Source of the DNA: a virus
Taxonomy: Duplodnaviria > Heunggongvirae > Uroviricota > Caudoviricetes
IMG/VR virus record: IMGVR_UViG_2703719355_000015
Span: 1 to 9,274 of that record
Reading direction: 5' to 3' (one strand)
DNA: 9,274 nucleotides
The position numbers were made by a program. Below, one piece after another: positions 3,001 to 6,000 of the stretch; position 1 is the first letter of the stretch; each line of letters opens with the position of its first letter.

Positions 3001-6000
3001 AGGAGGAGCAGCGAAGGCATACGAAAGCCCTGTTATACGAAATGCCTTGTTACGTCTGGCAAATACGCCAAAAGGTAGCACAGCATATGACAGAGCGATC
3101 AGTACGGTCACACAATCGCTCACCAGAGTCGCACAGGCATCACAAAAAGAAGCTCAATAACTGGCAGCCACGGATGGCTAATTTTTATTCTTTGATCTCG
3201 TCCACAGGGAAAGAAGAGCAATGGCAAGACAGGAAACAGAGAATAGATAACCTACCTCATATGGTGCGCCAAAAAAATTAGCTATTGATACGGGCAAAAA
3301 AGCCGAAGCGATCAGAATTGAAAGGCAAAAAATAAGCCCAGTAACATAGTTTATTAAACTCTTAAATGAGAAACGTTTTGCTTGATTTACGGTCTCAGCG
3401 AGTGATCGCTTAACGATGGATAAAAGCAAATAGATGGCGACAGTAGCTAATGCCCCTTTCCACCAGTCTGGATATAATTTTGCGACAATCAGCCCAAGGA
3501 AAACCATGATGACAGACTGAGTATTCACACCAACCTCCTTAGTTTTGCGCAGGATACCAGATGATACTTTATTGGTGGAGTGGTGTGTGAAAACGTGTCA
3601 ACGACAAACCATCCACAACTTGGACGAATGATTTAGCAAAAAGTGCTATTTTTGGTGTTTGGTGTCATAGAAACGTGAATAGCTTACTTTTCAACATTGC
3701 TTATGTTGTGAGTTCTAACGGTAACAGGGAGTGACTTAAGAAAGTTATACGCAGTAAAGCCAGCGGCAGTTTCCCCTCCCTGACTTGATATATGGATATT
3801 TAATTCAGTTGCGCCTTGAGATAATGCGGTGAGACAGTGGTTCTGAAGTTGCCCAACAGTGGCAGTGTTAACGGGGCATAAGAAATGAATTGTGTGCAGC
3901 ATTATTTATCATCCTTGCCATAAATCTTTTTAAGTGTCTCAAACACAACAGCCTTGAACTGCTCTGCCTGCTGATCAGCCAAGCGTTCAGCTTCGTCGCG
4001 ATAGCCAGTCACAGGCGATGGTTTTGATAGAGCATCTTGGACGATTTGTAACAACTCGGAGTTCATTGATCTCCCATTCGCCTCCGCCCTGAATTTTAAT
4101 TTCTCCCTTACTTCCAAAGGCATACGGAAGTTAAAGTGCGGATCGTCTCTAGCCATGCCATCACTCCAAGTTAGTATCTCTAACTTTCGTCTTTATTGTT
4201 GCTATACATGCATTTCAACTTCTCAACATCATGTTCAAGATCTATCAATCGTGATGCTATAGTTGCAAGGTCTAGTGCTTGAATGTGTTTATTTTTTTCG
4301 GTCCATGCTTCAAGTGCCGCGACCATCTCAGCATTTAATGAACGAGACTTAGCCTCAGCCAGTTCAATAAGACGTTCCTTTATCTCTACAGGAAGCCTCA
4401 GATTCACTTGAGGGTTTTTGTACTTACGATCAGACATCGGCACATCCTGAATAACTTTTTACCACAGGATATGTAGGTATCTATTGACTATCAATGCGTA
4501 CCTAAATACTATGTATGCGTACCACATACAGCGGAGGATGCAATGAAGGTAAAAACACTGCGTATGCCAGAGAAGTTAGAAAAAATCCTTGAAGAGAAAG
4601 CAAAGGAAGAGTGTCGATCGTTTAGCGCAGAAGTAATTAAACGGGTGCTGGACAGCTTGAAGAGAGAGGGGGTGATGGTATGAGTAAAGAATGTTGTTTC
4701 TGCGGCATTAGCGAATCAGACGCTGATCAAACATACATTTACTCTAAAGAAACAGGTCGGATGCTGTGTAGTGACTGCGTGTTGGACATCATAAGATACA
4801 AGCATCTTGGATGTTCTGCCAGCATTAGCAATATAGGTGAAGTATACGAAGGGAAAGATATAACTGATAGAGCAGAAAGTTGAAGCCCCAACTGCGGGAA
4901 CAGTCAGGGCTTCGGTATCGTAAAACCACGCATAGGAATTAACGACATGACGAGTGTAGCAATTGCAGAACATACAATCAACGTTCCATTCCACGGAACA
5001 AATCTCTTTTTGGTCAGCATTAACAATGAACCTTACGTTCCTATGAAACCCGTTGTAGAAGGTATGGGTATGGTTTGGGCTGCTCAATTTGTTAAATTAA
5101 AACAGAGATTTGTCAAAGGTATTTCGGAAATCGAAATACCTTCTGCTGGCGGTAAACAGTTAATGATATGCCTTGCCTTTCGTAAGTTTGCGGCTTGGCT
5201 TTCAAGCATTCAGCCAAACAAAGTCCGCCCTGAAATCCGCGACAAGGTAATCCAGTATCAGGAAGAGTGTGACGATGTGCTCTACGAGTACTGGACTAAA
5301 GGTCATGTAGTTAACCCACGCAAAGCTAAAAAGGCGTTGCCGGGTAAAATTACCACTGAACAGCAGGAAGCCATTAAACAACTCGTCATGAGTCGCGGTC
5401 AGTCTCTGCCAAAAGAAAAACAGGCTAAGGCGATGATCACCATGTGGTCGTCACTGAAATCCCATTTTGGATGTTCGTACAAAGAAATCAGTGAGGAGCA
5501 GTTTACCGAAGCACTATCACTTGCAGCTCGAGTTCCACTTGAAGGTGAGTTCATTGGCAAGTCGGAACATAATGAGATGAGTTGTTTTGATTGGAGGATG
5601 AATGTTCATAACCTGAACTCGGCGTGCATTCATCTTGATGCCATGTACAGAATATGGAGAGACGAAATGGAACCCGCTTTGCGATTGCTTGGCTCTCCGG
5701 TTGCGACCAGATTTTGCGGAAGAATTGCAGATTGCTATTCCGTAACTGCAAGCGTTAAGAAAAGTCTGGAGAATGCCGCAGGGCTGAAAGGCTTACAACC
5801 ATTTTAACTACCTGCACGAAAAGTGCAGGTCAATCATCAACGCAACGACCCAGCTTCGGCTGGGTTTTTTTATGCCCAAAATTCACCGTAGCCACGCTGC
5901 GGCGATTCCTTGCATCTGGAGCAAATTAAATGACAGACATTACAGCTAATGTGATTGTATCGATGCCTTCGCAACTCTTCACTATGGCGCGTTCTTTTAA

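Follow-up and report, generated by a model that had tools for sequence, protein, structure and literature searches.

The immI regions of phages P22 and epsilon34 share one layout, mnt – Pmnt/Oarc/Pant/Omnt – arc – sar – ant, and in P22 the prophage-expressed Mnt keeps the antirepressor gene ant off (PMC7380047, PMC11016777). Here we describe the immI region of a 9,274-nucleotide stretch of DNA (positions 1 to 9,274 of IMG/VR virus record IMGVR_UViG_2703719355_000015; hereafter the window, whose positions serve as coordinates throughout), which is a late/immI segment of a P22-like (Lederbergvirus-type) prophage. Its leftward operon contains two genes of the Mnt family of ribbon-helix-helix (RHH) repressors in tandem, a promoter-proximal one that we refer to as RHH2 and a distal one of the P22 type. 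The initial annotation had set this pair against the single mnt of P22, and mnt is indeed single in P22, where it is accompanied by Omnt and Oarc, and also in epsilon34. The window follows the logic and gene order of the P22/epsilon34 region, and its mnt, mnt leader and sar terminator are homologous to those of these phages. It differs from P22 in that the control region and arc are swapped, a Mnt-family gene is extra, a gene that we call orf67 is added, and mnt is left without an operator. The arc gene of the window, which encodes a 46-residue Arc-family protein, is named arc2 here.

Phage CUS-3 (CP000711; King et al. 2007) has the same string of genes, mnt, RHH2, control region, arc2, orf67 and ant, and its DNA is 95.6% identical to the window over 3963–4996. 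The encoded proteins are 97.7% (RHH2), 100% (arc2), 100% (orf67) and 88.6% (Mnt) identical. Both leftward genes are annotated as mnt in CUS-3, and arc2 and orf67 lie unannotated inside a "bsq2 boundary sequence". CUS-3 prophage relatives with an identical RHH2/mnt junction are found in E. coli UTI89, IHE3034, APEC O18 and NU14. The tandem arrangement has thus been in public annotation since 2007 (CUS-3), and the window is another mosaic CUS-3-type immI region. It is unlike CUS-3 in having a different mnt C-terminal allele, a different C-terminal half of Ant (81% identity to the CUS-3 Ant over residues 1–213), a tailspike that is not an endosialidase, and different downstream leftward cargo, partly deleted and including a ClpP-like remnant. 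Villafane et al. (2008) drew the "ant morons" of CUS-3, UTI-1 and APEC-1, with CUS-3 apparently lacking arc (PMC2629481). That remark is outdated, because the PGAP annotation of UTI89, IHE3034, APEC O18 and others has three Arc-family genes, and because Pfam supports the 46-residue product as an Arc protein; the record should hence be corrected to say that CUS-3-type regions possess an arc gene. The literature that was searched contained no paper on the function of mnt genes in tandem.

Two further kinds of region bear on the comparison. Lone-RHH2 immI regions, found in SEN22 and in many E. coli, Photorhabdus and Xenorhabdus prophages, share with the window RHH2, the operator core, an arc2-like gene and ant, but they contain no second Mnt-type gene and have varied cargo directly after RHH2. 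In the Salmonella phage SEN22 the lone RHH2 is 82% identical to that of the window and is divergent from a 48-residue arc-like gene and ant. Phage L carries a divergent orphan mnt-like gene without arc or ant, for which "another function or a remnant" was considered (PMC8022706). Phages L and ST64T resemble the window in that their ant moron retains a Mnt-family gene while lacking the ant or arc that would go with it. In phage L, however, the whole arc/ant module is gone and the mnt-like gene is divergent, whereas the window has a complete, different immI module beside a near-canonical P22 mnt.

We think it likely that the window carries a CUS-3-type immI region that arose by cassette replacement, in which RHH2 is the cis-acting maintenance repressor and the distal Mnt a passenger that is transcribed along with it and has no operator, possibly repressing in trans. 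Gene identities, junctions, the absence of Omnt, the distribution of the genes and the conservation of the operator core form the observed basis of this reading. The leftward, prophage-expressed operon would run from a leftward promoter through RHH2 and mnt to the ClpP-like gene. RHH2 would act on conserved operators around the rightward arc2–orf67–ant promoter and so keep Ant off, and arc2 and sar would supply the Arc-like and antisense layers, as they do in P22. The P22-type mnt, with no promoter of its own and neither of the two P22 operators, would depend entirely on transcription reading through from the RHH2 promoter and, for translation, on its retained Shine-Dalgarno sequence, and would have no target in cis. 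If expressed, the distal Mnt should bind the Omnt of P22-immI phages, whether incoming or co-resident, and shut off their Ant; the immI immunity of the lysogen would then cover a second specificity.

RHH2 (4180–4437, minus strand) is an open reading frame (ORF) of 85 residues from an ATG at 4437, or of 87 residues from a GTG at 4443 (4180–4443). The ATG is the likelier start, because an AGGA Shine-Dalgarno sequence lies 7 nt upstream of it and because the GTG-extended reading is absent in loci L025 and L061 (L numbers label the recovered loci that we compared; L001, for example, is CUS-3). The N-terminal RHH domain of the protein matches Pfam Arc (PF03869, 2.9e-9), and RHH2 has no match to Repressor_Mnt (PF11423) in Pfam. 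Using hhalign, an 18-member alignment of the RHH2 family was matched to the Mnt-family alignment (probability 98.8%, E 4.9e-17) over residues 8–85 of RHH2 and 5–85 of Mnt, reaching the last residue. Both proteins match phrog_795 end to end (residues 1–82 of RHH2), the best PDB sequence match of RHH2 is 1MNT (1.3e-4), followed by Arc, and a Mnt-like C-terminus, ETLKTMYGK, is common among many RHH2 homologues. By these comparisons RHH2 is a predicted full-length Mnt homologue, more than an RHH domain alone, in agreement with the initial description of the 85-residue protein as Mnt-like. A weak single-sequence AlphaFold (AF2) model (pLDDT 78.7, pTM 0.32) has an extended N-terminus and helices at residues 17–48 and 57–84, a layout that would fit Mnt.

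The N-terminal reading strand of RHH2 had been described as distinct from that of Mnt. It reads YKNPQVNLRLP in the window, with an Arc-like Q-N-R in place of the H-N-R of Mnt, and in the form YK[N/H]PQVNLRLP it is invariant among 42 distinct RHH2 homologues. We take Q-N-R to be the contact residues, following work by the Sauer laboratory. The gene is leftward and divergent from the arc–ant operon in the window, in SEN22 and in more than 60 loci, and homologues with 43–57% identity adjoin genes like arc2 and ant in Photorhabdus, Xenorhabdus, Arsenophonus, Phlomobacter and Chimaeribacter. RHH2 is thus best regarded as an autonomous immI allele, the putative equivalent of Mnt. We also observed that phrog_795 and many RefSeq phage records label Mnt-family proteins (P22-like mnt genes) as "partition protein ATPase"; this label is wrong and is evidently a propagated annotation error.

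The distal gene (3902–4156, minus strand) encodes an 84-residue protein, MARDDPHFNFRMPLEVREKLKFRAEANGRSMNSELLQIVQDALSKPSPVTGYRDEAERLADQQAEQFKAVVFETLKKIYGKDDK, and follows RHH2 after a spacer of 23 nt (4157–4179), the gap given in the initial annotation. Both genes are complete ORFs arranged head to tail on the minus strand. The distal protein has an N-terminal RHH domain (Pfam Arc PF03869, 6e-29, residues 2–51) and a C-terminal tetramerisation region (Pfam Repressor_Mnt PF11423, 4.2e-12, residues 53–80). The mnt stretch at 3961–4175 is 94.4% identical to P22 mnt at the DNA level and the distal protein shares 84% of its residues with P22 Mnt, so that the earlier characterisation as near-canonical P22 Mnt was correct. 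Its N-terminal DNA-reading region, MARDDPHFNFRMP, is exactly that of P22 Mnt. The four residues reported by Knight and Sauer to contact the operator (Arg2, His6, Asn8 and Arg10) are all present. The mnt leader is also kept, as 19 nt (4157–4175) that include the Shine-Dalgarno sequence (minus strand: ACTAACTTGGAGTGATGGC). The 4157–4179 spacer showed neither a promoter nor an operator or terminator, a scan of 3500–5000 gave no promoter-like site upstream of the distal mnt within RHH2, and no minus-strand terminator was found from 4443 to 3902. As neither a promoter nor a terminator lies between the two genes, the distal mnt would be expressible only from the RHH2 transcript, as its second cistron.

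The borders between the P22-like sequence and the new module are sharp. The left homology common to the window and P22 consists of mnt plus ccatcactccaagttagt, and the sequence across the break (marked by a slash) is catgccatcactccaagttagt/atctcta in the window and catgccatcactccaagttagt/gtattgacatgatagaag in P22. The break is 19 nt upstream of the mnt ATG (~4175/4176), exactly where the -35 element of P22 Pant and Oarc begin. On the right, homology to P22 restarts at AGTTGAAGCCCCAACTGCGG..GGGCTTCGG, which is the sar terminator hairpin. Between these points lies a cassette (~4176–4875) of RHH2, a new control region, arc2 and orf67, standing in place of the ~220-bp Pmnt/Oarc/Pant/Omnt and arc segment of P22. 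The junction ...GAAAGTTAG/AGAT/ACTAACTTGGAGTGATGGC-ATG is the same in every pair-bearing locus that was recovered, which points to one ancestral event. It is well supported by these alignments that the arrangement was probably built by replacement with an alternative immI cassette beside a resident mnt; the right crossover would have fallen in the conserved sar terminator and the left junction 19 nt upstream of the start codon of the resident mnt. Module shuffling had been suggested at the outset, and both the sharp homology break with its restart at sar and the independent occurrence of the RHH2/arc-like module in many phages bear this out. The region is a natural experiment in the evolution of immunity modules, an allele replacement anchored at sar with its breakpoint just upstream of the ribosome-binding site of the resident repressor.

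A duplication of mnt in situ, followed by divergence of the proximal copy, could also have put two homologous genes one behind the other on one strand. The two proteins, however, are just ~31–39% identical in a local tblastn alignment, and it is the distal gene that remains 94% identical to P22 mnt in DNA up to a sharp break in homology. Moreover, the proximal gene comes with its own operators and an arc partner as an independent module in distant genera. We consider duplication extremely improbable; the sharp break, and the fact that the RHH2 module is distributed independently, rule it out.

The control region (4438–4542; 99–105 nt, intergenic) contains the sole promoter-like sites that a scan found in 3500–5000, two back-to-back divergent ones within 4466–4512. 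The rightward site has a -35 TTGACT at 4484–4489 and a -10 TACTAT at 4507–4512, and the leftward site has a -35 TTGATA at 4494–4489 and a -10 TATCCT at 4471–4466. A 31-bp palindrome, TAGGTAtCtATTGAcTaTCAATgCgTACCTA (4474–4504), is centred on the overlapping -35 hexamers, and an inverted repeat, TGTATGcgtaccaCATACA (4512–4530), covers the predicted rightward +1 and occupies the place that Omnt has in P22. GGTAYSYA boxes, a motif defined post hoc, occur at 4476–4483 (plus strand), 4495–4502 (minus strand) and 4516–4523 (minus strand) with a spacing of ~19–21 bp; these three are the only matches in the window and all lie within 48 bp. The core GGTAyCTATTGACTATCAATrCGTACC...TATGTATGCrTACCACATACA is nearly unchanged from E. 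coli to Photorhabdus, over which distance the flanking proteins drop to 45–50% identity, and to Chimaeribacter, and at 4474–4530 it is kept in L010, L012–L014 and L092 while the RHH2 and arc2 proteins are only 45–56% identical. The near-invariant core matches the reading heads of RHH2 and arc2, which are invariant. Covariation of these heads with the DNA gave no leverage for assigning the operators, because heads and operator core are both invariant across the homologues. By analogy with P22, RHH2 may act at the sites flanking and covering the rightward promoter, and arc2 may serve in autoregulation at both promoters.

The initial annotation had also raised the idea of a dual-specificity circuit in which each of the two repressors reads a different operator. 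We searched for the 17-bp Omnt core AGGTCCACGGTGGACCT, allowing up to 3 mismatches, a search that was positive in P22 as a control. No such site was found in the window or in the complete 40,207-bp CUS-3 genome, and a target in cis for the distal Mnt is therefore rejected; the circuit with one cis operator per repressor is not supported. A broader version, with separate local operators or with mixed tetramers formed through the homologous C-terminal helices, could draw on the homologous C-terminal region of the two proteins (the hhalign match runs to the end and LKxMYGK is common to both), on the several repeated boxes in the control region, and on the outer arms TAGGTA/TACCTA of the palindrome, which resemble the outer bases TAGGTCCAC...GTGGACCTA of Omnt. 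The same control region, however, serves a lone RHH2 in most phages and is invariant with or without mnt, and the two families, RHH2 and Mnt, show little conservation of their C-terminal halves. Together with the missing Omnt, this makes a local circuit of two repressors improbable. Separation from Omnt is unusual for a gene of this type: among the best 80 IMG/VR loci for P22-type Mnt, 76 have Omnt at most 160 nt upstream, 3 lie behind RHH2 and the remaining one lies at the end of a contig. The operator-less P22-type mnt is hence an exception among P22-type loci. By its family matches the distal protein is assigned to the Mnt family, but the locus is no canonical mnt/Omnt unit.

We next consider how common the pair is. 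Among the complete genomes of E. coli (5426), 141 have RHH2 together with its control region, 45 have the RHH2/mnt junction, and at least 174 have the canonical P22 control region with arc. That 45 of the 141 RHH2-bearing genomes carry the pair means that it is a common variant, neither standard nor unique, and not a fixed feature of immI regions. Its recurrence in CUS-3 and in the 45 complete E. coli genomes further shows that the tandem is no chance feature. The picture is similar among 80 IMG/VR loci that contain an RHH2 relative: the gene stands alone in about 60 and precedes a P22-type mnt in 10; in 4 another Mnt-like gene comes after it, and in 2 another one lies upstream. In one recovered locus (L084, 2501–2763) RHH2 is frameshifted and the downstream P22-type mnt is intact, which might reflect a sequencing error or a lost cis repressor.

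Several points weigh against our reading. The number of GGTAYSYA boxes is not significant by itself (36 of 200 shuffles), and the operator assignments follow from positional analogy with P22 alone. Bicistronic transcription, the assignment of proteins to sites, and any action in trans or selective benefit of the distal Mnt are inferred. Two thirds of the RHH2-bearing E. coli prophages have no second gene. In L036 (2310–2567) and L061 (2504–2788) mnt has been deleted and the RHH2 C-terminus joined to the ClpP-like gene, a loss that is expected of a dispensable passenger. Finally, synonymous divergence (dS) in the pair context is 0.03 for RHH2 and 0.67 for the mnt alleles. With RHH2 near-identical and mnt highly diverged, the diversity of mnt must have come in through recombination with ordinary mnt genes. 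The ratio of nonsynonymous to synonymous divergence (dN/dS) between pairs of pair-context mnt alleles is low, 0.12 overall and 0.07 in the RHH domain, but this constraint was probably earned in ordinary single-mnt phages and then imported. We therefore dropped the dN/dS of 0.12 as proof of selection on the orphan mnt, which is far more diverged than the adjacent RHH2. In L036 and L061 the fusion point is the LKxMYGK motif common to both families, and these joints suggest a recombination hotspot where Mnt-family genes encode the C-terminus.

These data would also suit a neutral recombination scar, in which the distal mnt is a functionless leftover that is still intact because it is recent and is refreshed by homologous recombination. 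The contrast in dS, the pairless two thirds of RHH2 prophages, the mnt-deleted derivatives and the absence of a cis operator all lean this way, and the authors of the phage L study weighed a like "remnant" reading for its orphan mnt-like gene (PMC8022706). Against a scar stands the fact that all 11 of 11 distinct pair-context mnt alleles are intact (82–84 residues) with the Shine-Dalgarno sequence retained. Furthermore, there are at least five tandem combinations, including a triple, in which the downstream repressor ORF and its leader are always complete, and Omnt sites that match are in circulation among prophages of this host species. We hold a functionless scar to be a real possibility, though one that we would not bet on.

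Repressor stacking has in fact occurred more than once, in pairs and in a triple. The triple is in L023 (2208–3578; IMG/VR UViG_2541047931_000005), where three tandem Mnt-type genes, an allele beginning MKGARDISPLGIRIP, then RHH2, then a P22-type mnt, are followed by an intact ClpP-like gene. Here RHH2 has lost its control region and has kept only its leader with the Shine-Dalgarno sequence (TTATTCAGGATGTGCCG-ATG), and the junction lies in a TGGTAAA microhomology. Other stacks consist of RHH2 and an 88-residue Mnt/RHH allele (L024/L025, 2501–3002), an RHH2-like gene and a 78-residue Mnt/RHH allele (L081, 2501–3027), and an RHH2-like gene and a 79-residue RHH protein in Arsenophonus nasoniae (L007, 3001–3582) and in another Arsenophonus locus (L089). 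The downstream repressor ORF is complete in all of them, which is suggestive of selection for keeping old repressors expressed. Stacking might thus broaden secondary immunity, with new immI alleles landing before the resident Mnt-type gene, whose leader and Shine-Dalgarno sequence are spared, and the orphans being kept to silence foreign ant; we put this forward as a speculative and rather doubtful proposal. One prophage promoter would then drive two or three Mnt specificities, with a cis operator for the promoter-proximal one only, and the orphans would protect the resident prophage from induction in trans by other immI types. If this is true, phages L and ST64T, with their orphan mnt-like gene, would add another case.

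Residues 1–47 of the orphan Mnt match the cis-acting Mnt of E. coli prophages with a canonical Omnt, which in those canonical-immI prophages reads TAGGTCCAC[C/G]GTGGACCTA. Prophage Mnt reportedly acts on superinfecting genomes as well, according to work by Susskind and Botstein. Given the biology of P22 Mnt and a matching Omnt in the same host species, an orphan Mnt that is expressed would be expected to silence the ant gene of incoming P22-immI phages. By this analogy, action of the orphan in trans on superinfecting phages is plausible, as the initial annotation had proposed. If the operator-less Mnt is expressed and active, the lysogen would have immunity against the expression of antirepressor by P22-like phages of a second class, and the same idea, if true, would account for the unexplained orphan mnt genes of phages L and ST64T.

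The rightward operon starts with arc2 (4543–4683, plus strand), whose 46-residue product matches Pfam Arc (PF03869, 3e-8) and has the reading strand MKVKTLRMP. The gene adjoins RHH2 in most loci, and its counterpart in CUS-3 is at 5581–5718 of L001. An ATGA overlap joins arc2 to orf67 (4680–4883, plus strand), which forms the right end of the swapped cassette and encodes a Cys-rich CxxC...CxxC protein of 67 residues that matches phrog_7150 (unknown function, 3e-50). Only some RHH2/arc2 loci have orf67, and in L061 its slot holds a different 74-residue CxxC...CxxC ORF. A likeness of orf67 to the ClpX zinc-binding domain was considered and is unconfirmed, with no Pfam match and only marginal RING-finger-like PDB matches (E 0.005). 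The antisense RNA sar (4878–4945, minus strand) was identified with Rfam RF00262 (84.6 bits, gathering score 43, E 3.7e-17); it is complementary to the orf67–ant intercistronic region and the ant ribosome-binding site, and P22 and L023 share its sequence. The gene whose output the region regulates, ant (4947–5807, plus strand), lies downstream of the small Arc-family gene and encodes a 286-residue antirepressor with a P22_AR_N domain (PF10547, 5.7e-40).

The third gene of the leftward operon is a truncated ClpP-like ORF of 72 residues (3684–3902, minus strand), whose ATG overlaps the mnt stop codon (ATAATG). It is cut at ~3690 by a deletion of ~1.3–1.45 kb relative to L023, L036, L061 and phage EC.P3, in which the full-size ORF has 178 residues. 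A Clp-fold protease-like gene thus sits in a prophage-expressed immI operon. Next to it is an ORF for a predicted membrane protein of 116 residues (3178–3528, minus strand), with no significant Pfam match and no PHROG match, at roughly the position that sieA has in P22. Ejection-protein genes occupy 153–1148 and 1145–3160 on the plus strand. No more than 57% of the window is covered by any complete E. coli genome. Beyond ant, the tailspike gene (5930–7726, plus strand) encodes a P22-type head-binding N-terminus but a different receptor-binding part. It is followed by an acyltransferase gene (7797–8906, plus strand), whose product, an acyltransferase-family membrane protein, occupies the slot of the neuO O-acetyltransferase of CUS-3.

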